IMG/VR virus record: IMGVR_UViG_647533159_000006
Strand: one strand, 5' to 3'
DNA: 32,030 nucleotides
From: a virus
Taxonomy: Duplodnaviria > Heunggongvirae > Uroviricota > Caudoviricetes
The notes under the pieces were generated by a model that did no database searches, was not told the DNA's origin, and saw only the letters and a list, made by a program, of their open reading frames with translations. This document shows, piece after piece, positions 1-30,891 of the stretch. The stretch's first letter is position 1. The number at the start of each line of letters is the position of its first letter. A program made the translations under genes and the position numbers.

Positions 1-1011
1 TTATAACGTCACTCCGCCTTTTAGTGGATTCAGAGCGACGGCATTTTGCAGGTAGTCAGGCGCAAGGTGCGCATAGGCCATCGTCTGCTGAATGCTCGCA
101 TGTCCCAGAATCTGTTGCAGTGCGATTATATTGCCCCCGTTCATCATGAAATGGCTTGCGAATGTATGCCGCAGGATGTGGGTTGCCTGATTGGGTGGTA
201 TATCAGGTTTCACTCTGCGTAAAATCCCGCAAAATTTCTCATAATCAACTTTGAATAATTTGGCGCTTGCCTCCTCTTTAACTTTTTTCTCCAGTTCCTC
301 AGAAATCGGCACGGTTCGCTTTTTACCGTTTTTGGTTTTCAGGAAGGTAACCCTGCAATTTGTAATCTGTGCTGGTTTTAGCGTGGCAACTTCCGTCCAT
401 CTTCCTCCAGTGCTCAGACATAAAAGCGCGACAAGTAAGTCATCACCAGCCAAAACATTTAACAGTTTTTCGATTTCTGCTTTTTCCAGGAACGTCATTT
501 CAGGGTTGGCCTCCGCCAGTGGCGGCAGTCCGTGAATTGGGTGTTGCCCGGAAAATTCATCCAATTGAATTAATTTTGTGAACATGCCGGATAATCGGTA
601 CATGTCACGGTTTATCGTTGCGGCACTGATACCATCACGTAGTCGTATGGAACGATAATCCATCAAAGCCCTTTTGCTCATCCGGCTCACTGGTATATCA
701 CCTATGCCGCTGATGGTTTTGAGTAGATGATTAAACTCTTTTGTTCCATGCTCGTGGTTTTGCCCGTGATATTTCCACCAGATGTCCAGCAACTCACTCA
801 AAGTTCGGCGGTCTGCTCGCTGGCCTCCCCATTCTTTCTGACTGGCATTGGCGATTGTGTATCGCTCAAATGCTAGTGCTTCAGCTTTTCTTTCGAATTT
901 CCTGCGGATGCGTTTTCCGTCGCGACCGCGAGGTCTAATGTCCACTTCATAGCGACCATCATCGAGCTTCTTAATTGCCATAAGAAAGCCCTCCGGCGCT
1001 GTATTCACCAT
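1..1011 (-). CDS. int: Tyrosine integrase (P2 Int-like)
   Basis: 336-aa minus-strand ORF; C-terminal catalytic region with ...HILRHTFASHFMMNGGNIIALQQILGHASIQQTMAYAHLAP (R..HxxR..Y tyrosine recombinase signature); sits at the prophage end next to the repressor. Confidence 0.9.
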   Translation of the reverse strand: MVNTAPEGFLMAIKKLDDGRYEVDIRPRGRDGKRIRRKFERKAEALAFERYTIANASQKEWGGQRADRRTLSELLDIWWKYHGQNHEHGTKEFNHLLKTISGIGDIPVSRMSKRALMDYRSIRLRDGISAATINRDMYRLSGMFTKLIQLDEFSGQHPIHGLPPLAEANPEMTFLEKAEIEKLLNVLAGDDLLVALLCLSTGGRWTEVATLKPAQITNCRVTFLKTKNGKKRTVPISEELEKKVKEEASAKLFKVDYEKFCGILRRVKPDIPPNQATHILRHTFASHFMMNGGNIIALQQILGHASIQQTMAYAHLAPDYLQNAVALNPLKGGVTL

Positions 1012-3509: not shown

Positions 3510-5784
3510 AGCCTCCGGGCATTTTGTCCCTCCGTCAGCATTTGCCGCAGGCACCGGTAAGACGTTTACCGGTGCTTATGCATGGAACGCGCCACGCGAG
3601 GCCGTCGGGCGCGAAAGACCTCTTACACGTGACGAGATGCGTCAGGTGCAAGGTGTTTTATCCACGATTAACCGCCTGCCTTACTTTTTGCGCTCGCTGT
3701 TTACTTCACGCTATGACTACATCCGGCGCAATAAAAGCCCGGTGCACGGGTTTTATTTCCTCACATCCACTTTTCAGCGTCGTTTATGGCCGCGCATTGA
3801 GCGTGTGAATCAGCGCCATGAAATGAACACCGACGCGTCGTTGCTGTTTCTGGCAGAGCGTGAGCACTATGCGCGCCTGCCGGGAATGAATGACAAGGAG
3901 CTGAAAAAGTTTGCCGCCCGTATCTCATCGCAGCTTTTCATAATGTATGAGGAACTCTGCGATGCCTGGGTGGATGCGCATGGCGAGAAAGAATCGCTGT
4001 TTACGGATGAGGCGCAGGCTCACCTGTATGGTCATGTTGCTGGCGCTGCACGTGCTTTCAATATTTCCCCGCTCTACTGGAAAAAATACCGTAAAGGGCA
4101 GATGACCACGAGGCAGGCATATTCTGCCATTGCCCGTCTGTTTAACGATGAGTGGTGGACTCATCAGCTTAAAGGCCAGCGTATGCGCTGGCATGAGGCG
4201 TTACTGATTGCTGTCGGGGAGGTCAATAAAGACCGTTCTCCTTATGCCAGTAAACATGCCATTCGTGATGTGCGTGCGCGCCGCCAGGCAAATCTGGAAT
4301 TTCTTAAATCGTGTGACCTTGAAAACAAGGAAACCGGCGAGCGCATCGACCTTATCAGTAAGGTGATGGGCAGTATTTCTAATCCAGAAATTCGCCGGAT
4401 GGAGCTGATGAACACCATCGCCGGTATTGAGCGTTACGCTGCCGCAGAGGGTGATGTGGGGATGTTTATCACGCTGACCGCGCCGTCAAAGTATCACCCG
4501 ACACGTCAGGTCAGAAAAGGCGAAAGTAAAACCGTCCAGCTAAATCACGGCTGGAATGATGAGGCATTTAATCCAAAGGATGCGCAGCGTTATCTCTGCC
4601 GTATCTGGAGCCTGATGCGCACGGCATTCAAGGATAATGATTTACAGGCCTACGGTTTGCGTGTTGTTGAACCACACCACGACGGAACGCCGCACTGGCA
4701 TATGATGCTTTTTTGTAATCCACGCCAGCGTAACCAGATTATTGAAATCATGCGTCGCTACGCGCTCAAAGAGGATGGAGACGAAAGAGGAGCCGCGCGA
4801 AACCGTTTTCAGGCAAAACATCTTAACCGGGGCGGTGCTGCGGGGTATATCGCGAAATACATCTCAAAAAATATCGACGGCTATGCACTGGATGGTCAGC
4901 TCGATAATGATACCGGCAGACCGCTGAAAGATACTGCCGCGGCTGTTACCGCATGGGCGTCAACGTGGCGCATCCCGCAATTTAAAACGGTTGGTCTGCC
5001 GACAATGGGGGCTTACCGTGAACTACGCAAATTGCCTCGCGGCGTCAGCATTGCTGATGAGTTTGACGAGCGCGTCGAGGCTGCACGCGCCGCTGCAGAC
5101 AGTGGTGATTTTGCGTTGTATATCAGCGCGCAGGGCGGGGCAAATGTCCCGCGCGATTGTCAGACTGTCAGGGTCGCCCGTAGCCCGTCGGATGAAGTTA
5201 ACGAGTACGAGGAAGAAGTCGAGAGAGTGGTCGGCATTTACGCGCCGCATCTCGGCGCGCGTCATATTCATATCACCAGAACCACGGACTGGCGCATTGT
5301 GCCGAAAGTGCCGGTCGTTGAGCCTTTGACTTTAAAAAGCGGCATCGCCGCGCCTCGGAGTCCTGTCAATAACTGTGGAAAGCTCACCGGTGGTGATACT
5401 TCGTTACCGGCTCCCACGCCTTCTGAGCACGCCGCAGCAGTGCTTAATCTGGTTGATGACGGTGTTATCGAATGGAATGACCCGGAGGTCGTGAGGGCGC
5501 TCAGGGGCGCATTAAAACACGGCCTGAGAAGACCAAATCGTCAGCAAAGAAACGGAAGCCCGTTAAAACCGCATGAAATTGCACCATCGGCCAGACTGAC
5601 CCGGTCTGAACGATTGCAAATCACCCGTATCCGCGTTGACCTTGCTCAGAACGGTATCAGGCCGCAGCGATGGGAGCTTGAGGCGCTGGCGCGTGGCGTG
5701 ACCGTAAATTATGACGGGAAAAAATTCACGTATCCGGTCGCTGATGAGTGGCCGGGGTTCTCAAAAGTAATGGAGTGGACATAA
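3499..5784 (+). CDS. A: Replication initiation protein A (rolling-circle HUH endonuclease)
   Basis: ATG at 3499 (MAVKASGHFVPP...) gives 761 aa; contains the HUH motif (PHWHMMLF) and a tyrosine pair (GYIAKYISK) typical of rolling-circle initiators; the track ORF starts upstream at 3457 in frame. Confidence 0.9.
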   Translation: MAVKASGHFVPPSAFAAGTGKTFTGAYAWNAPREAVGRERPLTRDEMRQVQGVLSTINRLPYFLRSLFTSRYDYIRRNKSPVHGFYFLTSTFQRRLWPRIERVNQRHEMNTDASLLFLAEREHYARLPGMNDKELKKFAARISSQLFIMYEELCDAWVDAHGEKESLFTDEAQAHLYGHVAGAARAFNISPLYWKKYRKGQMTTRQAYSAIARLFNDEWWTHQLKGQRMRWHEALLIAVGEVNKDRSPYASKHAIRDVRARRQANLEFLKSCDLENKETGERIDLISKVMGSISNPEIRRMELMNTIAGIERYAAAEGDVGMFITLTAPSKYHPTRQVRKGESKTVQLNHGWNDEAFNPKDAQRYLCRIWSLMRTAFKDNDLQAYGLRVVEPHHDGTPHWHMMLFCNPRQRNQIIEIMRRYALKEDGDERGAARNRFQAKHLNRGGAAGYIAKYISKNIDGYALDGQLDNDTGRPLKDTAAAVTAWASTWRIPQFKTVGLPTMGAYRELRKLPRGVSIADEFDERVEAARAAADSGDFALYISAQGGANVPRDCQTVRVARSPSDEVNEYEEEVERVVGIYAPHLGARHIHITRTTDWRIVPKVPVVEPLTLKSGIAAPRSPVNNCGKLTGGDTSLPAPTPSEHAAAVLNLVDDGVIEWNDPEVVRALRGALKHGLRRPNRQQRNGSPLKPHEIAPSARLTRSERLQITRIRVDLAQNGIRPQRWELEALARGVTVNYDGKKFTYPVADEWPGFSKVMEWT

Positions 5785-6233
5785 TGGCAAAAATTCACGA
5801 GGTAAAGCTGCACGCAAAATATTTTGACCTTGTACTGGAAGGAAAGAAACGAGCAGAGTTTCGTAAAAATGACCGTAATTATGAGTGCGGGGACACGTTG
5901 ATTTTGCATGAATGGGTGCAGGGGGTGTATACGGGGCGAAAGGTTGAAACCCGGATAACGGATGTTACTGACCTGTCAGACTGGATGGAAGGTTATGTCT
6001 TGCTAAGTATTGAGCTGCTTAATACAGGCGCATATGAGATTGTGAACTGGAAAGAACTTAGTGAGCGTGGTCTGGTATTCAGAATTAATCATGACATTAT
6101 GCATCAGCTCGGCCTTGCTGTTATGTATGAACCAGAGACGGGGATGTCTGGCGGGGCAATGGTTGCCACGGATGGAGCATGGAACTATTCAGATGAACAG
6201 ATGGAGCATGCAAAGCAAAATGGGTGGTTTTGA
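5785..6233 (+). CDS. ASCH/DUF3850-like (PUA-fold) domain protein
   Basis: ATG at 5785 immediately after the A stop (MAKIHEVKLHAKYFDLVLEGKKRAEFRKNDRNYECGDTLILHEW...), a pattern I recognise as DUF3850/ASCH-like; this is a motif-level call. Confidence 0.45.
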
Positions 6234-6793: not shown

Positions 6794-7831
6794 ATGGCGG
6801 TAAAAGTTGTTGATCTTTTTTGTGGTGCTGGCGGGCTTACTCATGGCTTAAAGCAAGCCGGATTAGATGTAGTCGCTGGTATTGATATAGAGAGTGCATG
6901 CCGGGTTGCTTATGAAAGTAATAACAGTGCGCTTTTTATTGAAAAAGATATTTCTCTGGTGACCAAAGACGAGCTTAACGATCTTTTTGAAGGTGCGCAG
7001 GTCAGGGTGTTGGCTGGTTGTGCGCCGTGCCAACCTTTTTCAAGGTATACGCAAGGGCGCGATAAGAAAAATGATAAAAAGTGGCCTCTTCTTTATGAAT
7101 TTGAACGTTTAATTCGAGGGGTTAATCCAGAGATCGTTACAATGGAAAATGTGCCTGATGTAACGAAGCATTCTGTTTATAGTGACTTCTATAATAGTTT
7201 AGAGGCATTGGGTTATCATGTCTGGGCCGGAAAGGTTGAATGTGTAGATTATGGTGTTCCGCAAAATAGAGTAAGGCATGTATTATTGGCATCTAAATTT
7301 GCGCCGCTTTCATTTGTAAAACCAAAAGTAGAAAAGGCGGTGACGGTAAAAGAATGCATTGGCGGACTTCCTCCATTAAAGGCAGGTCAAACGGATCCTG
7401 TTGATCCTTTACATAAAGCAAGTAAATTAAGTGATATAAATCTAAAACGTATTGCTTGCTCTAAACCAGGAGGGACATGGCGAGACTGGCCAGTAGAGTT
7501 GATTGCATCATGCCACATAAAGAAAAGTGGGCAAGGTTATGCTAGTGTATACGGACGTATGGATTGGGATAAACCAAGTCCTACAATTACTACGCTATGT
7601 TATGGTTTTGGAAATGGCAGATTTGGTCATCCAGAGCAAAATCGTGCAATTTCTCTGAGAGAGGCTGCATTGTTGCAAACGTTTCCAAAGGATTACGTTT
7701 TTACTGCACCCAATGAGAAAGTATCTATAAAGAATGTTGGTAGGATGATTGGTAATGCAGTACCGGTAAAACTAGGTGAGGTTATAGGTGAGTCAATTAT
7801 AACTCACCTAAAAGAGCACAATATAGTTTAA
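6794..7831 (+). CDS. DNA (cytosine-5)-methyltransferase
   Basis: 345 aa with canonical C5-MTase motifs: I DLFCGAGG, IV PCQPFS, VI ENV, VIII QNRVR, X GNAVP; GGAG Shine-Dalgarno 7 nt upstream of the ATG. Confidence 0.9.
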   Translation: MAVKVVDLFCGAGGLTHGLKQAGLDVVAGIDIESACRVAYESNNSALFIEKDISLVTKDELNDLFEGAQVRVLAGCAPCQPFSRYTQGRDKKNDKKWPLLYEFERLIRGVNPEIVTMENVPDVTKHSVYSDFYNSLEALGYHVWAGKVECVDYGVPQNRVRHVLLASKFAPLSFVKPKVEKAVTVKECIGGLPPLKAGQTDPVDPLHKASKLSDINLKRIACSKPGGTWRDWPVELIASCHIKKSGQGYASVYGRMDWDKPSPTITTLCYGFGNGRFGHPEQNRAISLREAALLQTFPKDYVFTAPNEKVSIKNVGRMIGNAVPVKLGEVIGESIITHLKEHNIV

Positions 7832-8559
7832 GCATGTAGTCTTGATGATCGTATGTATAAGCGATCATCAAGGTATTTTTGTATGTTTTCTAGTATTTCT
7901 TCTAGGTAATGGAAAACTTCATTTTTAAGAAGTTCAAGGTTGTCAATAGACGTTTCTTGACCCTTGTTTAAAAAGGATTCTGAACCATGTGCCAATGCAT
8001 TTCTTGCTTTTTTTATGTTTACTAAATTTCCACCATTATGAGTTTTTGAACGATCTGTTTGATAGGAAAAACCATAGATATTAGCAACATCCCTAATTTT
8101 CTGTGCGTCAACATTTCCCGAAAATAGGGGGTTTTTATCTGCTTGAACTTGTTTTTTGTGTTCCTCTAGCCATTTTTTTAGAACTAGTTTTGCTATATCA
8201 CCTTGTGAAAAATCCATGTCACTCACCATATGATGGTCTAATTTTTTTAAGGCAAGCTTTGTTAAACTTTCGCAAATCTTATCGACACAAAGATCATCGC
8301 ACGAATTAAGTTCATTATGTATGTCTTCAATAGCATTAGATATAGTGGCTTCAATTAAGTTATATAATATAATAAACGCATTGGCTTTAAGGATATGCGT
8401 CATTTCGATATCGATTTCGCGGTGTTTACATTCGCCTGCTGTGCGATCTTTGTACGAGAAAGTTGGTCTCTCATCAATAATGAATTTAACAAAATTAAAA
8501 TATTTTTCTATATCTTCTTTTCTTTCAGAAAATAAAATTTTGCTGTTCATAATGACCAC
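7828..8559 (-). CDS. HEPN-like protein with Rx4H motif (putative RNase/effector), second gene of the DUF262 operon
   Basis: 243-aa ORF (GTG start 8559 with GGAG upstream; alternative ATG at 8550); C-terminal KKARNALAHG matches the HEPN Rx4-6H signature; 6 bp downstream of the DUF262 gene on the same strand; 3' end overlaps the MTase 3' end by 4 bp. Confidence 0.55.
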   Translation of the reverse strand: MVIMNSKILFSERKEDIEKYFNFVKFIIDERPTFSYKDRTAGECKHREIDIEMTHILKANAFIILYNLIEATISNAIEDIHNELNSCDDLCVDKICESLTKLALKKLDHHMVSDMDFSQGDIAKLVLKKWLEEHKKQVQADKNPLFSGNVDAQKIRDVANIYGFSYQTDRSKTHNGGNLVNIKKARNALAHGSESFLNKGQETSIDNLELLKNEVFHYLEEILENIQKYLDDRLYIRSSRLHA

Positions 8560-8565
8560 GGATAG

Positions 8566-9690
8566 TTACTCCTCACTATCATCTAGAACAGTATCTTCGG
8601 TCTGCACACCTAAAAGTTTGTCTCTTACATATTCAATACGTGCTTTTACTTTAGGTTTTGAGTTTGACGCATCAGATCTTGTATGTTTAATAAACTCTTC
8701 TGAGTTTAACCATTCCTCTACCGGTGTTGGTATTATGTTAGAGTTAGTTTTTAAGGCTAAAGTGGAACCGACAGCTAACGCTTCAAAGCGAATTCTTGGT
8801 ACAGTGTTTGCTGTTGCATTCTTTCTGAAACCATAGGGGAAATGTGTTTTGACAAATTCACACATATCTTGAAATTGTGCAGTTAGTTTTTCTTCTTGCT
8901 CAGGACTAAATGACTCATTTCGTTGGTCAAGATATTGGGTTAAGAAAGTATCAACACTTTTTTCAAAGTTAAGATAGTTATCACAATAGGCAAAATATCT
9001 AAGAACCAATTCTGGATATTCTCCACGACTGATTCTGGCATCGTTTAGAGGGCATATTTCCCTAAACAATGGAAACTCTGATAGTCTATTAACAACATCA
9101 AGAAAAGGCCCATCATTACTGCCCTGTCGTTGCTCCATTGTCGTGAGTTTTATTCCACCTGTATTCAATCGATCGAAAATCTCCCTTCTTGCTTCTTCAT
9201 CACATAATTCAGTGAGTTCAATCATTCGAATAGTTTTTCTATCGAATCTAAGCTTACGTGCAGGTGTGAAGTCAGAGTATTTGAATCCGTTGGCTGAAGT
9301 TAACTTTTTTAATCCAGTAAGGGTAAATTTATCATTTAGAAAATGATAAAGTGTTCTAATCCTCTGGCTACCATCAACGATTTCCAATCGCCCATCGTCA
9401 TTTCCGATATCGGCAACAAATACATATGGGATAGGAATATTTAGCAAAAGCGATTCAATGAATCTTGATTTTTGAACATTGCTCCAAACAAATTCCCTTT
9501 GATAATCAGGTATGTATAGTTCTGCTTGGTCGGTTTCTAATCCTTTCTGAAATTTGTCAACAATGACACTTACAGGAAACTCTCTAATTTGGTGATCCGT
9601 TATTTTTTGCATGGATTTGATCTGGTTATCCAGGTCAACTTTATCTTCTTCTGTGATCACTTGTTCAGGTTGTCTTGGGACTCTTGCCAT
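8566..9690 (-). CDS. DUF262 (ParB/Srx-like NTPase-fold) domain protein
   Basis: ATG at 9690 preceded by AAGGAG (track ORF extends to a GTG at 9765); DUF262 motifs IPDYQREFVW, IVDGSQRIRTL and FDRLNTGGIKLT; about 170 C-terminal residues without a recognisable HNH/DUF1524 motif. Confidence 0.75.
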   Translation of the reverse strand: MARVPRQPEQVITEEDKVDLDNQIKSMQKITDHQIREFPVSVIVDKFQKGLETDQAELYIPDYQREFVWSNVQKSRFIESLLLNIPIPYVFVADIGNDDGRLEIVDGSQRIRTLYHFLNDKFTLTGLKKLTSANGFKYSDFTPARKLRFDRKTIRMIELTELCDEEARREIFDRLNTGGIKLTTMEQRQGSNDGPFLDVVNRLSEFPLFREICPLNDARISRGEYPELVLRYFAYCDNYLNFEKSVDTFLTQYLDQRNESFSPEQEEKLTAQFQDMCEFVKTHFPYGFRKNATANTVPRIRFEALAVGSTLALKTNSNIIPTPVEEWLNSEEFIKHTRSDASNSKPKVKARIEYVRDKLLGVQTEDTVLDDSEE

Positions 9691-9833
9691 TTGTTTTCTC
9701 CTTATGCTTATTTGCAATAAGTTGCATTTGTTTGCATGCGTAGTTTTATACTGATTTAATCCCACAAGTCCTTTACATGCAAGGGTTAGAGGCTTAAATG
9801 CACCTGCATTAAAACCGCCTTATGAAGCGGGCA

Positions 9834-20246: not shown

Positions 20247-21155
20247 ATGCCGATTATCGACCTGAACCAGCTACCCGCACCGGATGTGGTCGAGGAGCTG
20301 GACTTTGAAACCATTCTTGCTGAACGCAAGGCGACACTGATTTCCCTTTACCCGGAGGACCAGCAGGAGGCGGTCGCCCGTACCCTGACGCTGGAATCTG
20401 AGCCTCTCGTTAAACTGCTGGAGGAAAATGCTTATCGTGAGCTTATCTGGCGTCAGCGTGTGAATGAGGCCGCACGGGCGGTGATGCTGGCCTGTGCAGC
20501 CGGTAATGACCTTGATGTGATTGGTGCCAATTACAACACCACGCGCCTGACTATCACCCCGGCAGATGATTCGACCATTCCGCCGACACCGGCAGTGATG
20601 GAGTCTGACACCGATTATCGTCTGCGTATTCAGCAGGCGTTTGAGGGCTTAAGCGTCGCCGGGTCGGTGGGTGCCTATCAGTATCATGGTCGCAGTGCCG
20701 ACGGGCGTGTCGCGGATATCTCTGTCACCAGTCCGTCTCCGGCCTGCGTCACCATCTCTGTGCTGTCACGTGAAAATAACGGTGTCGCATCCGAAGACCT
20801 GCTGGCCGTGGTGCGTAACGCCCTTAATGGCGAGGACGTCAGGCCGGTGGCCGACCGCGTGACCGTGCAGTCTGCCGCCATCGTTGAATACCAGATAAAC
20901 GCCACGCTGTATCTTTACCCTGGTCCCGAAAGCGAACCCATTCGCGCTGCCGCCGTGAAAAAACTGGAAGCGTATATCACGGCACAGCACCGGCTGGGGC
21001 GCGACATCCGTCTGTCTGCCATTTATGCCGCTTTGCATGTGGAAGGCGTGCAGCGTGTCGAACTGGCTGCACCGCTGGCCGACATCGTGCTCAACAATAC
21101 GCAGGCGTCTTTCTGTACCGAATACAGCGTCGTGACCGGAGGCTCGGATGAGTGA
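20247..21155 (+). CDS. J: Baseplate assembly protein J
   Basis: 302 aa, P2 J position. Confidence 0.8.
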   Translation: MPIIDLNQLPAPDVVEELDFETILAERKATLISLYPEDQQEAVARTLTLESEPLVKLLEENAYRELIWRQRVNEAARAVMLACAAGNDLDVIGANYNTTRLTITPADDSTIPPTPAVMESDTDYRLRIQQAFEGLSVAGSVGAYQYHGRSADGRVADISVTSPSPACVTISVLSRENNGVASEDLLAVVRNALNGEDVRPVADRVTVQSAAIVEYQINATLYLYPGPESEPIRAAAVKKLEAYITAQHRLGRDIRLSAIYAALHVEGVQRVELAAPLADIVLNNTQASFCTEYSVVTGGSDE

Positions 21156-21759
21156 TTCGCGACTGCTGCCGACCGGCTCATCACCGCTTGAAGTCGCCGC
21201 CGCAAAAGCCTGTGCGGAAATTGAAAAAACGCCGGTCAGTATTCGTGAGCTGTGGAACCCGGACACCTGCCCGGCAAATCTGCTGCCGTGGCTGGCGTGG
21301 TCATTTTCGGTTGACCGCTGGGATGATAAGTGGCCGGAAGCGACAAAACGCGCTGTTATCCGCGATGCGTATTTCATTCACTGCCATAAGGGCACTATAG
21401 GCGCAATCCGGCGTGTGGTGGAGCCGCTCGGCTATCTGATTGAGGTGAGGGAGTGGTGGCAACTCAATGAGGAGCCGGGGACGTTCCGTATCGTTGTTGG
21501 CGTGCTTGAGCAGGGTATTACCGAGGAAATGTATCAGGAGCTGGAGCGCCTCGTTGCTGATGCAAAACCGGCAAGCCGCCATCTGACGGGACTGGCTATC
21601 AGTTTAAGTACAACCGGCAACATTTTTGCCGGTGCGGGATGCTATCACGGCGACGCCCTGACAGTTTATCCCTACACCCCGGAGGCCATTATTGTCGGAG
21701 GGGATTATTTCCCGGCCTCGGCCATTCATTTAATTGATAACCTGAGAGTAAACGCATGA
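21148..21759 (+). CDS. I: Baseplate protein I
   Basis: 203-aa track ORF, overlapping the J stop and the H start. Confidence 0.7.
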   Translation: MSDSRLLPTGSSPLEVAAAKACAEIEKTPVSIRELWNPDTCPANLLPWLAWSFSVDRWDDKWPEATKRAVIRDAYFIHCHKGTIGAIRRVVEPLGYLIEVREWWQLNEEPGTFRIVVGVLEQGITEEMYQELERLVADAKPASRHLTGLAISLSTTGNIFAGAGCYHGDALTVYPYTPEAIIVGGDYFPASAIHLIDNLRVNA

Positions 21760-22854
21760 CAGTGAAATACTACGCCATTCTGACTAATCAGGGCGCAGCA
21801 CGGCTGGCTAACGCGACGATGCTTGGCAGTAAGCTGAATCTGACGCAAATGGCCGTTGGTGATGCGAATGGTGTCTTGCCGACACCAGACCCGGCACAGA
21901 CAAAACTGATTAACCAGAAACGCATCGCGCCGCTGAATCTTCTGAGTGTTGACCCGAACAACCAGAGCCAGATTATTGCGGAGCAAATTATCCCTGAGAA
22001 CGAGGGTGGATTCTGGATCCGTGAGATTGGGCTTTATGATGATGAAGGCGTACTCATTGCGGTGGCGAACTGCCCGGAAACGTACAAACCGCAGTTACAG
22101 GAAGGCAGCGGTCGTACCCAGACTATCCGCATGATTCTGGTTGTCACGAATACCGAAGCTATTACGCTGAAAATCGACCCGTCGGTGGTACTGGCGACCC
22201 GTAAATACGTGGATGATGAAGTCCTGGAATTAAGGCTGTATGTGGATGACCAGATGAGAAACCACATTGCCGCACAGGATCCTCATACCCAGTATGCACA
22301 GAAACATAATCCGACATTTACCGGAGAACCAAAAGCGCCGACTCCTGATGCAGGAAATAACACCACGCGGATTGCGACCACTGCGTTTGTACAGGCTGCT
22401 ATTACCGCTCTGATTAATGGTGCGCCTGCCACGCTGGACACACTGAAAGAAATTGCCGCAGCCATTAACAATGACCCGAAATTCAGCACCACCATTAACA
22501 ATGCGCTGGCAGGTAAACAACCGCTGGACAATACGCTGACTCATTTGAGTGGAAAGGATGTTGCCGGTCTTCTCGCATACCTTGGTTTGGGAGAAGGTTC
22601 TCCAGCTATTGGCGTTCCGTTCTTCTGGCCGTCCGCTGCAATGCCAAATACTGTAATCGACAGCTGGTCCAGTATGGTGTTTTTGAAGTTCAACGGCGCG
22701 AAATTCTCTGCCACTGATTACCCTGTGCTGGCGAAAGTGTTTCCTTCGCTGGTATTACCTGAAGCCCGCGGTGATTTCATTCGTATCTGGGATGACGGGC
22801 GAGGTGCAGACGGTGGTCGCGAATTATTAAGCTGGCAGGCAGCTACAAACTTTT
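21756..22854 (+). CDS. H: Tail fibre protein H (3' end truncated by the N-run; C-terminal part lies in an invertible segment)
   Basis: Long ORF after I that runs into the N-run with no stop; C-terminal visible part (...GDFIRIWDDGRGADGGR...) resembles Mu/P1 S-type variable tail-fibre regions. Confidence 0.8.
22570..22595. promoter_or_regulatory. Hin/Gin-family recombination site (hix-like), left copy inside H
   Basis: ttctcgcatacc-tt-ggtttgggagaa; its reverse complement matches the right copy at 19 of 26 positions including TTCTCC and AAACCAA; counted by hand. Confidence 0.6.
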
Positions 22855-23407
22855 NNNNNNNNNNNNNNNNNNNNNNNNNNNNNNNNNNNNNNNNNNNNNN
22901 NNNNNNNNNNNNNNNNNNNNNNNNNNNNNNNNNNNNNNNNNNNNNNNNNNNNNNNNNNNNNNNNNNNNNNNNNNNNNNNNNNNNNNNNNNNNNNNNNNNN
23001 NNNNNNNNNNNNNNNNNNNNNNNNNNNNNNNNNNNNNNNNNNNNNNNNNNNNNNNNNNNNNNNNNNNNNNNNNNNNNNNNNNNNNNNNNNNNNNNNNNNN
23101 NNNNNNNNNNNNNNNNNNNNNNNNNNNNNNNNNNNNNNNNNNNNNNNNNNNNNNNNNNNNNNNNNNNNNNNNNNNNNNNNNNNNNNNNNNNNNNNNNNNN
23201 NNNNNNNNNNNNNNNNNNNNNNNNNNNNNNNNNNNNNNNNNNNNNNNNNNNNNNNNNNNNNNNNNNNNNNNNNNNNNNNNNNNNNNNNNNNNNNNNNNNN
23301 NNNNNNNNNNNNNNNNNNNNNNNNNNNNNNNNNNNNNNNNNNNNNNNNNNNNNNNNNNNNNNNNNNNNNNNNNNNNNNNNNNNNNNNNNNNNNNNNNNNN
23401 NNNNNNN
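22855..23407. other. Assembly gap (553 N)
   Basis: Contiguous n characters; lies between the two hix-like sites. Confidence 1.
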
Positions 23408-23567
23408 GATATCATTCCAGTTAATTGAGATGGAATAGTTCGTTGTTGTAAACGATCGGGGGAAAGTTATGTGTCTTACATTGGTGCCGACAGGAAATCC
23501 AAGATAAACACGCTGAATTATCATTCCTCCAGGTAACATAACCCAGTTAGCACCTTCTCCAAAACCA
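23408..23567 (-). CDS. Alternative tail-fibre C-terminal segment (partial, reads from the right hix-like site into the gap)
   Basis: The minus-strand frame ...GFGEGANWVMLPGGMIIQRVYLGFPVGTNVRHITFPRSF... is in the same codon phase relative to the crossover dinucleotide as H (LGLGEGSPAIG...), so inversion would fuse it in frame to the constant part of H. Confidence 0.5.
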
Positions 23568-23579
23568 ACGTTTAAGAAA
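23554..23579. promoter_or_regulatory. Hin/Gin-family recombination site (hix/gix/cix-like), right copy
   Basis: ttctccaaaacc-aa-cgtttaagaaaa closely resembles hixL/gix/cix 26-bp sites (12-2-12 imperfect palindrome); located about 57 bp upstream of the invertase start. Confidence 0.7.
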
Positions 23580-23635
23580 ATGCAGAGATTATGGCTAACT
23601 GGCATCATCTCCGGTTTTTATTCAGGGGGATGCTC

Positions 23636-24229
23636 ATGCTTATTGGCTATGTACGCGTGTCAACAAATGACCAGAACACGGAATTGCAGCGTAACGCGCT
23701 GGAGTGCGCGGGATGTGAGCGGATTTTTGAGGACAAAATCAGCGGCACGAAGTCCGACAGGCCGGGACTGAAAAAACTGCTCAGAACATTATCAGCAGGT
23801 GACACTCTGGTAGTCTGGAAGCTGGACCGGCTGGGGCGTAGTATGCGGCATCTGGTCATTCTGGTTGAGGAGCTGCGCGAACGCGGCGTTAATTTTCGCA
23901 GCCTGACAGATGCTATTGATACCAGCACGCCGATGGGGCGTTTTTTCTTTCATGTGATGGGTGCCCTGGCTGAAATGGAGCGAGAACTCATTGTCGAGCG
24001 GACACGCGCCGGACTGGAAGCGGCCAGAGCCAAAGGGCGTATTGGTGGCAGACGTCCGAAGCTCACCGCGAGTGAGTGGGAACAGGCAGGACGGTTGCTG
24101 GCTGCGGGTGAATCACGTCAACGCGTGGCGCTGATTTTTGATATTGGCCTGTCCACGCTCTATAAAAAATTCCCCTCATCAGCGGCAAAGAATAAATTGT
24201 GTCATCCCTTAGCCAACCGGGACAAATAG
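23636..24229 (+). CDS. Serine DNA invertase (Hin/Gin/Cin/Pin family)
   Basis: ATG at 23636 (MLIGYVRVSTNDQNTELQRNAL...): resolvase/invertase N-terminal catalytic serine motif plus a C-terminal HTH; track ORF starts at 23591. Confidence 0.9.
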   Translation: MLIGYVRVSTNDQNTELQRNALECAGCERIFEDKISGTKSDRPGLKKLLRTLSAGDTLVVWKLDRLGRSMRHLVILVEELRERGVNFRSLTDAIDTSTPMGRFFFHVMGALAEMERELIVERTRAGLEAARAKGRIGGRRPKLTASEWEQAGRLLAAGESRQRVALIFDIGLSTLYKKFPSSAAKNKLCHPLANRDK

Positions 24230-24288
24230 CCTGACATCTCCGGCACAACTGAAAATAACACTCACCCATTAACCACGGAGTTAAACGG

Positions 24289-25479
24289 ATGAGTGACTAT
24301 CATCACGGCGTGCAGGTGCTGGAGATTAACGACGGCACCCGCGTCATTTCCACCGTATCCACCGCCATTGTTGGCATGGTCTGCACGGCCAGCGATGCGG
24401 ATGCGGAAACCTTCCCCGTCAATAAACCGGTGCTGATCACCAATGTGCAGAGCGCGATTGCAAAGGCCGGTAAAAAAGGCACGCTGGCGGCATCGTTGCA
24501 GGCCATCGCTGACCAGTCAAAACCGGTCACCGTTGTCGTGCGCGTGGAAGACGGAACCGGCGACGACGAAGAAACGAAACTCGCGCAGACCGTTTCCAAT
24601 ATCATCGGCACCACTGACGAAAACGGTCAGTACACCGGACTGAAAGCCCTGCTGGCGGCGGAGTCGGTAACCGGTGTTAAACCGCGTATTCTCGGTGTGC
24701 CGGGACTGGATACCAAAGAGGTGGCTGTTGCACTGGCATCCGTCTGTCAGAAGCTGCGCGCTTTCGGGTATATCAGCGCATGGGGCTGTAAAACCATTTC
24801 CGAGGTGAAAGCCTACCGCCAGAATTTCAGCCAGCGTGAGCTGATGGTCATCTGGCCGGATTTCCTCGCATGGGATACGGTCACCAGTACCACCGCCACC
24901 GCGTATGCCACCGCCCGTGCGCTGGGTCTGCGCGCTAAAATCGACCAGGAGCAGGGCTGGCATAAAACGCTGTCCAACGTCGGGGTAAACGGTGTTACCG
25001 GCATCAGCGCCTCTGTATTCTGGGATTTGCAGGAGTCCGGCACCGATGCTGACCTGCTTAACGAGTCAGGCGTCACTACGCTGATTCGCCGCGACGGTTT
25101 CCGATTCTGGGGTAACCGTACCTGCTCTGATGACCCGCTGTTCCTCTTTGAAAACTACACCCGCACCGCGCAGGTGCTGGCCGACACGATGGCTGAGGCG
25201 CACATGTGGGCGGTGGACAAGCCCATCACCGCAACGCTGATTCGCGACATCGTTGACGGCATCAATGCCAAATTCCGTGAGCTGAAAACAAACGGCTATA
25301 TCGTGGATGCGACCTGCTGGTTCAGCGAAGAATCCAACGATGCGGAAACCCTCAAGGCCGGAAAACTGTATATCGACTACGACTATACCCCGGTGCCTCC
25401 TCTTGAAAACCTGACCCTGCGCCAGCGTATTACCGATAAATACCTGGCAAATCTGGTCACCTCGGTTAACAGCAATTAA
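24289..25479 (+). CDS. FI: Tail sheath protein
   Basis: 396 aa (P2 FI length), followed by the tube gene. Confidence 0.85.
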   Translation: MSDYHHGVQVLEINDGTRVISTVSTAIVGMVCTASDADAETFPVNKPVLITNVQSAIAKAGKKGTLAASLQAIADQSKPVTVVVRVEDGTGDDEETKLAQTVSNIIGTTDENGQYTGLKALLAAESVTGVKPRILGVPGLDTKEVAVALASVCQKLRAFGYISAWGCKTISEVKAYRQNFSQRELMVIWPDFLAWDTVTSTTATAYATARALGLRAKIDQEQGWHKTLSNVGVNGVTGISASVFWDLQESGTDADLLNESGVTTLIRRDGFRFWGNRTCSDDPLFLFENYTRTAQVLADTMAEAHMWAVDKPITATLIRDIVDGINAKFRELKTNGYIVDATCWFSEESNDAETLKAGKLYIDYDYTPVPPLENLTLRQRITDKYLANLVTSVNSN

Positions 25480-26342: not shown

Positions 26343-26494
26343 CGTTCCCGAAAAATCTCTCGGTCGATGACCTGATGGCGGATGTGGCAGTGATATTTCA
26401 CTGGCCGCCATCAGAACTGTATCCCATGAGCCTGACCGAACTCATCACATGGCGCGAAAAGGCGCTCCGGCGAAGCGGAAACACGAATGAGTAA
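26067..26494 (+). CDS. E+E' tail assembly chaperone produced by a programmed -1 ribosomal frameshift
   Basis: From the slippery site at 26315..26321 the -1 frame stays open to a TAA at 26492..26494 (...FPKNLSVDDLMADVAVIFHWPPSELYPMSLTELITWREKALRRSGNTNE), overlapping the T start; translated by hand. Confidence 0.6.
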
Positions 26495-28934
26495 CAATGT
26501 AAAATTACAGGTATTGCTCAGGGCTGTTGACCAGGCATCCCGCCCGTTTAAATCCATCCGCACAGCGAGCAAATCGCTGTCGGGGGATATCCGGGAAACA
26601 CAAAAATCACTGCGAGAGCTGAACGGTCAGGCATCCCGTATTGAGGGATTTCGCAAGACAAGTGCACAGCTCGCCGTGACTGGTCATGCACTTGAAAAGG
26701 CTCGGCAGGAAGCCGAAGCCCTTGCCACACAGTTTAAAAACACCGAACGTCCGACCCGTGCTCAGGCGAAAGTGCTGGAGTCCGCGAAGCGTGCGGCGGA
26801 GGACTTACAGGCGAAATATAACCGCCTGACGGATTCCGTTAAACGCCAGCAGCGGGAACTGGCCGTTGTGGGAATTAATACCCGCAATCTTGCACGTGAT
26901 GAGCAGGGACTGAAAAACCGTATCAGTGAAACCACCGCACAGCTTAACCGTCAGCGTGACGCGCTGGCGCGTGTCAGTGCGCAACAGGCAAAACTTAACG
27001 CAGTAAAACAGCGTTATCAGGCAGGCAAGGAACTGGCCGGAAATATGGCCTCAGTGGGCGCTGCCGGTGTGGGGATTGCGGCGGCGGGAACGATGGCCGG
27101 AGTTAAGTTGCTGACGCCCGGTTATGAGTTTGCGCAGAAAAACTCAGAATTGCAGGCCGTGCTCGGTGTGGCAAAAGATTCCGCCGAAATGGCCGCGCTC
27201 CGCAAGCAGGCGCGCCAGCTCGGCGATAATACCGCCGCCTCGGCGGATGATGCAGCCGGTGCGCAGATTATCATTGCGAAAGCGGGTGGAGATGTTGATG
27301 CCATTCAGGCGGCAACGCCGGTCACGCTGAATATGGCGCTGGCGAACCGTCGCACGATGGAAGAAAACGCCGCCCTGCTGATGGGGATGAAATCCGCCTT
27401 TCAGCTTTCAAACGATAAGGTCGCTCATATCGGGGATGTTCTCTCCATGACGATGAACAAAACCGCCGCCGATTTTGACGGCATGAGCGATGCGCTGACC
27501 TATGCCGCACCTGTGGCAAAAAATGCCGGTGTCAGCATTGAAGAAACCGCCGCAATGGTCGGGGCGCTGCATGATGCAAAAATCACAGGCTCAATGGCGG
27601 GAACGGGAAGCCGTGCCGTGTTAAGCCGCCTGCAGGCACCGACGGGAAAAGCATGGGATGCACTCAAAGAGCTTGGTGTGAAAACCTCAGACAGTAAGGG
27701 AAACACCCGACCAGTATTTACCATTCTGAAAGAAATGCAGGCCAGCTTTGAGAAAAACCGGCTCGGTACTGCCCAGCAGGCTGAATACATGAAAACCATT
27801 TTCGGGGAGGAGGCCAGTTCAGCCGCCGCCGTGCTGATGACTGCCGCCTCAACCGGAAAGCTGGACAAACTGACCGCTGCGTTTAAAGCCTCAGACGGAA
27901 AGACCGCAGAGCTGGTAAATATCATGCAGGACAACCTCGGCGGTGACTTTAAGGAGTTTCAGTCCGCTTATGAGGCGGTGGGGACTGACCTGTTTGACCA
28001 GCAGGAAGGCGCACTGCGTAAGCTCACGCAGACGGCCACAAAGTATGTGTTAAAACTCGACGGCTGGATCCAGAAAAACAAATCACTGGCGTCAACCATC
28101 GGCCTTATTGTCGGTGGTGCACTGGCGCTTACTGGCATCATCGGTGCAATTGGTCTTGTAGCCTGGCCGGTTATCACCGGCATTAATGCCATCATCGCGG
28201 CAGCAGGCGCAATGGGGGCAATCTTCACGACGGTTGGCAGTGCTGTTATGACGGCCATCGGGGCGATTAGCTGGCCGATTGTGGCTGTGGTGGCCGCCAT
28301 TGTCGCCGGGGCGTTGCTTATCCGTAAATACTGGGAGCCTGTCAGCGCATTCTTTGGCGGTGTGGTTGAAGGGCTGAAAGCAGCATTTGCGCCAGTGGGG
28401 GAACTGTTCACGCCACTTAAGCCGGTGTTTGACTGGCTGGGTGAAAAGTTACAGGCCGCGTGGCAGTGGTTTAAAAACCTGATTGCCCCGGTCAAAGCTA
28501 CCCAGGACACCCTGAACCGTTGCCGTGACACGGGCGTCATGTTCGGGCAGGCACTGGCTGACGCGCTGATGCTGCCGCTTAATGCGTTCAACAAACTGCG
28601 CAGTGGTATTGACTGGGTACTGGAAAAACTCGGTGTTATCAACAAAGAGTCAGACACACTTGACCAGACCGCCGCCAGAACTCAAGCCGCCACGTATGGC
28701 AGCGGTGGTTATATTCCGGCGACCAGCTCTTATGCAGGTTATCAGGCTTATCAGCCGGTCACGGCACCGGCTGGCCGCTCTTATGTGGACCAGAGTAAAA
28801 ACGAATATCACATCAGCCTGACGGGTGGTACTGCACCGGGGACACAGCTTGACCGCCAGTTACAGGATGCGCTCGAAAAATACGAGCGGGATAAACGTGC
28901 GCGCGCCCGTGCCAGCATGATGCATGACGGTTAA
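26487..28934 (+). CDS. T: Tail tape measure protein
   Basis: 815 aa (P2 gpT length), coiled-coil N-terminus and Gly/Ala-rich hydrophobic stretches. Confidence 0.85.
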   Translation: MSNNVKLQVLLRAVDQASRPFKSIRTASKSLSGDIRETQKSLRELNGQASRIEGFRKTSAQLAVTGHALEKARQEAEALATQFKNTERPTRAQAKVLESAKRAAEDLQAKYNRLTDSVKRQQRELAVVGINTRNLARDEQGLKNRISETTAQLNRQRDALARVSAQQAKLNAVKQRYQAGKELAGNMASVGAAGVGIAAAGTMAGVKLLTPGYEFAQKNSELQAVLGVAKDSAEMAALRKQARQLGDNTAASADDAAGAQIIIAKAGGDVDAIQAATPVTLNMALANRRTMEENAALLMGMKSAFQLSNDKVAHIGDVLSMTMNKTAADFDGMSDALTYAAPVAKNAGVSIEETAAMVGALHDAKITGSMAGTGSRAVLSRLQAPTGKAWDALKELGVKTSDSKGNTRPVFTILKEMQASFEKNRLGTAQQAEYMKTIFGEEASSAAAVLMTAASTGKLDKLTAAFKASDGKTAELVNIMQDNLGGDFKEFQSAYEAVGTDLFDQQEGALRKLTQTATKYVLKLDGWIQKNKSLASTIGLIVGGALALTGIIGAIGLVAWPVITGINAIIAAAGAMGAIFTTVGSAVMTAIGAISWPIVAVVAAIVAGALLIRKYWEPVSAFFGGVVEGLKAAFAPVGELFTPLKPVFDWLGEKLQAAWQWFKNLIAPVKATQDTLNRCRDTGVMFGQALADALMLPLNAFNKLRSGIDWVLEKLGVINKESDTLDQTAARTQAATYGSGGYIPATSSYAGYQAYQPVTAPAGRSYVDQSKNEYHISLTGGTAPGTQLDRQLQDALEKYERDKRARARASMMHDG

Positions 28935-30591: not shown

Positions 30592-30672
30592 TATTTTTAT
30601 TTTATCTATTTGTTTTATAAGGATAAATTAACTAAAATGGCACCATTAACAAAACCGGAAGAGGTGCTCGCG

Positions 30673-30891
30673 ATGTTTCATTGTCCTTTATGCCAGCATG
30701 CCGCACATGCGCGTACAAGTCGCTATATCACTGACACGACAAAAGAGCGTTATCACCAGTGTCAGAACGTGAATTGCAGCGCCACGTTCATCACTTATGA
30801 GTCGGTACAGCGATACATCGTGAAGCCGGGAGAAGTCCACGCCGTGAGGCCGCACCCGTTGCCGTCAGGGCAGCAAATTATGTGGATGTGA
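30673..30891 (+). CDS. ogr: Late gene transcriptional activator Ogr (zinc finger)
   Basis: 72 aa from the ATG at 30673 (MFHCPLCQHAAHARTSRYI...CQNVNC...): Ogr/Delta-type C4 zinc finger; track ORF extends to a TTG at 30610. Confidence 0.85.
   Translation: MFHCPLCQHAAHARTSRYITDTTKERYHQCQNVNCSATFITYESVQRYIVKPGEVHAVRPHPLPSGQQIMWM

Follow-up and report, generated by a model that had tools for sequence, protein, structure and literature searches.

A probable Gin/Pin-type inversion switch in the tail-fibre gene of a P2-like Escherichia coli prophage, with about 1313 bp likely missing from a gap of arbitrary stated length

The tail-fibre gene H in the window (the whole 32,030-nucleotide stretch analyzed here, IMG/VR record IMGVR_UViG_647533159_000006) probably carries a Gin/Pin-type inversion switch, and the Ns inside it probably represent a gap of arbitrary length from which about 1313 bp, similar in content to the corresponding DNA of relatives, are missing. 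This reading comes from comparison of sequences and is held with good confidence. The gap, a run of 553 Ns, is the sole non-ACGT stretch of the window, and is set among the following features:

21756..22582, plus strand: constant part of H, codons 1-276, up to the left crossover point (PF12571 Phage_tail_fib, E 1.8e-62)
22570..22595, plus strand: left crossover site (hix/gix/pix-like), recognized by inverted-repeat arm and core motif
22583..22854, plus strand: H variable region A, visible proximal part, codons 276-366; the frame is open from 21756 to the gap
22855..23407, no strand: scaffold gap, 553 N; about 1313-1314 bp in closed relatives
23408..23567, minus strand: alternative H C-terminal exon (region B, gp53-like, promoterless), visible proximal part, first 53 codons
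23555..23580, minus strand: right crossover site, recognized by inverted-repeat arm and core motif
23636..24229, plus strand: serine DNA invertase of the Gin/Pin/Cin/Hin type, 197 aa (PF00239 and PF02796)

The gap is bracketed by an imperfect inverted repeat of 32 nt (22570-22601 / 23549-23580, 78% complementary), each arm of which contains a 26-bp site of 12-2-12 layout: TTCTCGCATACC-TT-GGTTTGGGAGAA at 22570-22595 and, on the opposite strand, TTTTCTTAAACG-TT-GGTTTTGGAGAA at 23555-23580. At the center of the left site is TT (22582-22583), and at that of the right site AA on the plus strand (23567-23568). A 17-mer core, ACCTTGGTTTKGGAGAA, was found with up to three mismatches at two places in the window, both of them the crossover sites, against 0.13 expected by chance. 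Both are similar to the sites that PMC4134206 tabulates together with a consensus (Table 3). Between the right site and the downstream invertase start codon there are 55 nt. No extra crossover sites of the shufflon kind are present in the window or in the closed relative, E. coli E308, which have two sites each; given the two sites in the closed relative, the switch is of the simple kind with two states and is no shufflon.

The limits of the segment coincide with these sites. Continuous queries were compared with nine relatives that carry the identical invertase protein next to other cassettes; homology to the window is lost at 22594-22600 and regained at 23547-23554, which are the inner edges of both sites. 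The original prediction had placed the N run between two hix-like sites and within an invertible tail-fibre segment, and both parts are borne out: the first by 26-bp inverted sites centered on the positions it named (22583 and 23567), the second by the inverted repeat, the sites, the Gin-like invertase, and the cassette boundaries at the sites.

The invertase has the domain arrangement of the Gin/Pin/Cin/Hin recombinases, comprising an N-terminal resolvase domain (PF00239 Resolvase, 178.9 bits, E 8e-53), a catalytic serine near residue 9-10, and a C-terminal helix-turn-helix (PF02796 HTH_7, 48.3 bits, E 1e-12). Its best solved relative is Gin of phage Mu (PDB entry 3UJ3, E 6.4e-95, residues 1-184). 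Ser9 lies in the sequence RVSTNDQ, which in the PDB chain of 3UJ3 reads RVATNDQ, with Ala in its place. An identical invertase protein is encoded in many E. coli chromosomes, where it adjoins cassettes in either orientation. Many of the contigs that carry the invertase are shorter than 10 kb.

H is flanked by a P2 gpI-like gene and by the invertase and FI sheath genes. Its constant part is 96-99.9% identical in 12 relatives, independent of the cassette downstream. Region A is fused in frame to H in the window, and is presumably the expressed H tip there; its visible part shares 99.3% identity with the counterpart in E. coli E308, whose H reaches 427 aa. A Pfam Collar domain was not detected in region A at E<=0.01, and the sequence is collar-like by eye. 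Region B matches PF21882 (Gp53-like_C) weakly, below the cut-off of 24.9, with 19 bits for the visible part and 24.3 bits for the full E308 exon. H, the Tfa proteins, and the gp53-like exon could not be assigned to any specific NCBIfam family. There is no relationship between the two fibre tips: one is without a Pfam match and the other is gp53-like.

Either tip can be read from the same constant part. The H frame is kept across the junction as assembled (...AYLGLGEGSPAIG...) and also after inversion, when the constant part is joined to region B (...AYLGFGEGANWVM..., region B itself reading ...GLLAYLGFGEGANWVMLPGG...). Both orientations of the segment occur in relatives. In closed relatives, an H of 427 aa is followed by a Tfa of 197 aa in one orientation, and an H of 373 aa by a Tfa of 142 aa in the other. 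The cassette is flipped in loci L014 and L017, the latter at the same fieF site as the window, and in both the region B exon is fused to H to give the 373-aa protein, followed by the 142-aa Tfa. E. coli E308 (CP030281.1; L014 and L015) contains two P2-like prophages in one chromosome with the same cassette in opposite orientations. One of these prophages adjoins pflB and the other fieF, and they have the same tape-measure protein. A survey of 5426 complete E. coli genomes showed the window-type left junction in 52 and the flipped one in 17. In the proposed mechanism, the invertase (23636-24229) would recombine the inverted sites 22570-22595 / 23555-23580 and flip the DNA between them, which would exchange the C-terminal receptor-binding exon, together with its own assembly chaperone, that is joined to the 276 constant codons of H.

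The content of the gap can be read from closed relatives. The E308 locus L001 is 99.7% identical to the left flank and 96.8% identical to the right flank, up to both gap edges, with 1313 bp between them (L001 2056-3368). This interior comprises H codons 367-427 and the stop codon, a tfa gene of 197 aa on the plus strand, a convergent tfa' gene of 142 aa on the minus strand, and the end of region B, also on the minus strand, which corresponds to the distal 39-44 codons of the gp53-like exon. Both assembly genes (197 aa and 142 aa) match PF02413 (Caudo_TAP). An interior of 1313-1314 bp is also present in L002, L009, L013, L018, L020, and L023, of which L009 carries exactly the invertase protein of the window, and a 1313-nt interior is found in CP098975.1, as in E308. 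The full interior occurs in 72 complete genomes, measuring 1312-1314 bp among the 25 matches listed. None of the relatives that carry the same cassette has an insertion in it.

On this basis, the interior in the source genome is inferred to be the same as in the relatives, and the most likely size of the true segment is about 1745 bp, where the Ns would imply 985 bp. Among closed genomes, none is identical to the window; the best match to a complete E. coli genome is 97.5% over 24 kb, and the sole 100% match, OU349838.1, shares the gap. The relatives behind the predicted gap content are 96-99.7% identical in the flanks. The missing genes are predictable with good confidence. It had been proposed that the gap conceals the remainder of the H variable region, one or two assembly genes, and the far end of the alternative fibre gene, and homology to closed relatives agrees, with two tfa genes and both exon ends.

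The reference loci have annotation peculiarities of their own. PGAP/RefSeq splits the intact 427-aa H of E308 and E2 (L001/L002 957-2240) into two "incomplete" pseudogene fragments, annotated at 957-1346 and 1773-2240, though the open reading frame is uninterrupted. In E308 (L001 3268), one nucleotide is deleted close to the 3' end of the silent gp53-like exon, relative to L002, L009, and L013; this changes the last residues, and the called gp53-like ORF has 106 codons in E308 versus 111 in the other three. The deletion possibly reflects decay of an unexpressed allele.

As the cause of the break in the assembly, we lean towards collapse onto, or ambiguity with, a putative second copy of the cassette interior, nearly identical and located elsewhere in the genome. 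The cassette is also found in e14-like remnants, with identical stretches of more than 300 nt, and several genomes hold more than one copy of it. The only two alleles near the gap that are private to the window, 22811C (which differs from eight of nine relatives) and 23456T (nine of nine), are positioned 43 and 48 nt from the contig ends. These positions are suggestive of contigs ending roughly one k-mer after the last base by which the copies can be told apart, an argument that is post hoc and in which the two distances (43 and 48 nt) are unequal. Collapse against a second copy fits the breakpoints better than inversion does.

The original prediction had attributed the gap to the inversion itself, with both orientations present in the culture and an assembler unable to resolve them. 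As a cause this now seems fairly unlikely. It is in keeping with a real inversion switch that has an intact invertase, and with the occurrence of both orientations in relatives, even within one genome. There is also precedent: in EC958, about half of the reads from a region of this kind were in the alternative orientation and spurious contigs resulted (PMC4134206), and the segments of P2-like prophages are mixed in culture (PMC4272514). Furthermore, in 54 of the 142 collection blocks with the exact tape-measure protein, the longest carrying contig is 5-10 kb. The breakpoints, however, lie in the wrong place. The two orientations diverge 6 nt after 22583, so contigs from a mixed population should break at the crossover sites or a few bases from them; here, they end at 22854 and 23408, which is 272 nt (left) and 160 nt (right) inside the segment when counted from the crossover centers. 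The H-constant/region A and region B/invertase junctions were both assembled, contiguously and in one orientation. The inverted repeat is just 32 nt long, and the closed relative has no internal one longer than 17 nt that might shift the branch inward. Partial extension during gap filling could rescue the idea, as an extra assumption. A caution follows for similar records: the location of a gap inside an invertible segment is, taken alone, no evidence that inversion caused it, and what is informative is where the breakpoints lie with respect to the crossover sites.

Some other accident of assembly or scaffolding is unlikely to be the cause. Against collapse and inversion alike, the draft contigs L018, L020, and L023 run unbroken through the cassette, so that an assembly can evidently pass this place despite repeats or inversion. 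Odd composition that might lead to low coverage was not found in the closed-relative interior, which is ordinary in this respect (46% GC, no homopolymer >6). Breaks around the switch seem to be frequent in drafts, 5-10 kb being approximately the distance from the switch to the prophage end.

The number of Ns carries no information on the size of the gap. The chromosome-level record OU349838.1 (GCA_910664785.1, locus L016) has identical breakpoints with 100 N (L016 2822-2921) versus 553 N in the window, and is 100% identical to the window over 2821 nt to the left and 8623 nt to the right of the gap; the window is accordingly another rendering of the contigs behind that record. The 35 nt directly to the left of the gap have no match in the genome_contigs collection, from which the window therefore does not come. 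Given 553 N and 100 N at identical breakpoints, the count is a convention or an estimate and no measurement, and the gap length is arbitrary. The genome collection was searched with both gap edges concatenated as the query, such that edges <=716 nt apart would be reported as one place. In none of the 5426 complete E. coli genomes do the two edges lie that close together, and 607 carry at least one gap-edge sequence. An arbitrary gap length had been suspected at the outset, and the disagreement of 553 N and 100 N with each other and with the 1313-1314 nt of closed relatives, along with this search, upholds the suspicion. For annotation, the consequence is that the H gene of the record is truncated by the gap, that the stated gap length is meaningless, and that the ORFs called across the gap (21756..23438; 22718..23608, minus strand; 22843..23415, minus strand) are false, being artefacts of translated Ns.

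An interior of only about 550 nt, or one without the standard two chaperone genes, is accordingly given very little credence. A true length of about 553 nt would imply a deleted mini-cassette with both fibre-tip exons, and with the assembly genes absent or present as a remnant, and we regard this as highly improbable. In its favor, 553 is no conventional placeholder and may be the estimate of a scaffolder, and the two exon ends need only about 300 of the 553 nt; if the number came from read pairs, an interior shorter than 1313 bp would be favored. It is opposed by the result of the gap-edge search, by the length of 1313-1314 nt in all closed copies examined, and by the instability of the number, which is 100 in the sister record. 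A non-standard interior, containing an extra crossover site (multi-segment shufflon), an insertion sequence, or foreign cargo, is the least probable of all, since, although a multi-inversion P2-like locus exists in EPEC (PMC4272514) and insertions would break short-read assemblies too, E308 has just two crossover-type sites, the flanks are collinear with relatives to the last base at both gap edges, and no relative with the same cassette carries an insertion. Were either of these true, the tail-fibre switch would be chaperone-less or re-loaded, and none of the 5426 complete E. coli genomes would offer a counterpart.

With an interior like that of the relatives, the locus is known biology plus an assembly artefact, and nothing in it is new biologically. 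The cassette has already been closed in dozens of complete genomes, and the biological weight of the gap is small. That E. coli prophages carry tail-fibre switches of the Gin/Pin type has been known for decades. The present switch shows the features looked for in the Gin/Pin/Cin/Hin tail-fibre inversion family as regards recombinase, sites, orientations in relatives, and frame. As in the Mu G and e14 P cassettes, the frame is kept into either exon, and each exon has its own assembly gene, as read from closed relatives.

In Mu, inversion of the G segment swaps the variable C-terminus of the fibre together with its own assembly gene (S/U versus S'/U'). The present system shares with Mu G/Gin a Gin-like serine invertase with Ser9, two inverted 26-bp sites, and the combined swap of fibre tip and assembly gene. 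It differs in its location in a P2-like prophage, in its predicted segment of about 1.75 kb, versus about 3 kb in Mu, and in the mutual lack of relationship between its two tips. The P/Pin system of e14 (pinE, E. coli K-12) is likewise a two-site switch with the same stf/tfa layout. An e14-like remnant in E. coli FORC_031 contains the same cassette with the same 1313-nt interior, at about 97% nucleotide identity, adjoining pinE genes. In contrast to the complete P2-type H of the window, the remnant is without the upstream constant part. The FORC_031 cassette (L013 1883-4836) is located between two pinE-type invertase genes in a prophage remnant that is flanked by an Avs2 defence gene on one side and a GIY-YIG protein on the other, and its region A exon is mis-annotated as a partial "integrase".

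More distant comparisons are with Hin and Cin. Hin flips a promoter and not gene ends, and the C segment of P1 is larger than the segment described here. A Fis-dependent enhancer defines the Hin and Cin systems, and in Gin and Hin lies within the 5' part of the invertase gene, where a specific signal would be masked by conservation of the coding sequence. Salmonella Hin/hix and P1 Cin/cix have in common with the present switch the recombinase family and sites of 12-2-12 layout with a central dinucleotide (consensus: PMC4134206). Switching of prophage tail-fibre alleles at 26-bp sites in E. coli, with associated assembly artefacts, has been reported for EC958 (PMC4134206), and phase variation in P2-like prophages for EPEC (PMC4272514). 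The sites in these strains are of the same type and 26 bp long, for example, TCCTCAATTACCTT-GGTTTAGGAGAA in Phi2, and here as there the C-terminal part of the fibre is swapped in frame and each fragment has a downstream gene; for those strains, effects on assembly are documented (PMC4134206; PMC4272514). The EC958 and EPEC segments are 2.1-3.1 kb, and some are enclosed by inverted repeats of 227-508 bp, compared with the 32-nt repeat here (PMC4134206; PMC4272514).

The window as a whole is a complete and apparently intact P2-like E. coli prophage. It spans from the integrase (1-1011, minus strand) to ogr (30610-30891), with host fieF from 31110. In its gene order and its hallmark genes it agrees with P2 (Peduovirus-type): integrase, gpA, a cargo island (6794-9765), portal, terminase, and capsid genes, lysis genes, and baseplate V-W-J-I, followed by H from 21756, the invertase, sheath FI, tube FII, E, tape measure T, U, D, and ogr. 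Pfam matches in the window itself include Phage_GPA, Ogr_Delta, and the integrase, and the called genes of L016 (the identical locus) and relatives include Baseplate_J, Tail_P2_I, sheath, tube, GpE, tape measure, GpU, and GPD. The tape measure and the cargo region are as follows:

26487-28934: tape measure; the exact protein is found in 142 collection blocks
5748-6233: ASCH/DUF3850 and DUF7415 protein, upstream of the cargo island
6794-7831, plus strand: C5 cytosine methyltransferase (PF00145; best PADLOC matches DrmMII and MTase_II)
7828-8559, strand opposite to the methyltransferase: HEPN protein (PF18737)
8566-9765, strand opposite to the methyltransferase: GmrSD_N/DUF262 protein (PADLOC NsnA 2e-55, PD-T4-2_A 2e-34)

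The cargo island sits between gpA and the portal gene and, from its domain content, looks like an anti-phage defence pair with a methylase in a P2 variable hotspot. A related prophage at fieF, L019 (DARMNF010000022.1), lacks the stretch between the end of J and a point inside FI, which corresponds to 21121-24663 of the window. This deletion is clean, with a junction at about 4187-4178, and removes I, H, the switch, and the invertase.
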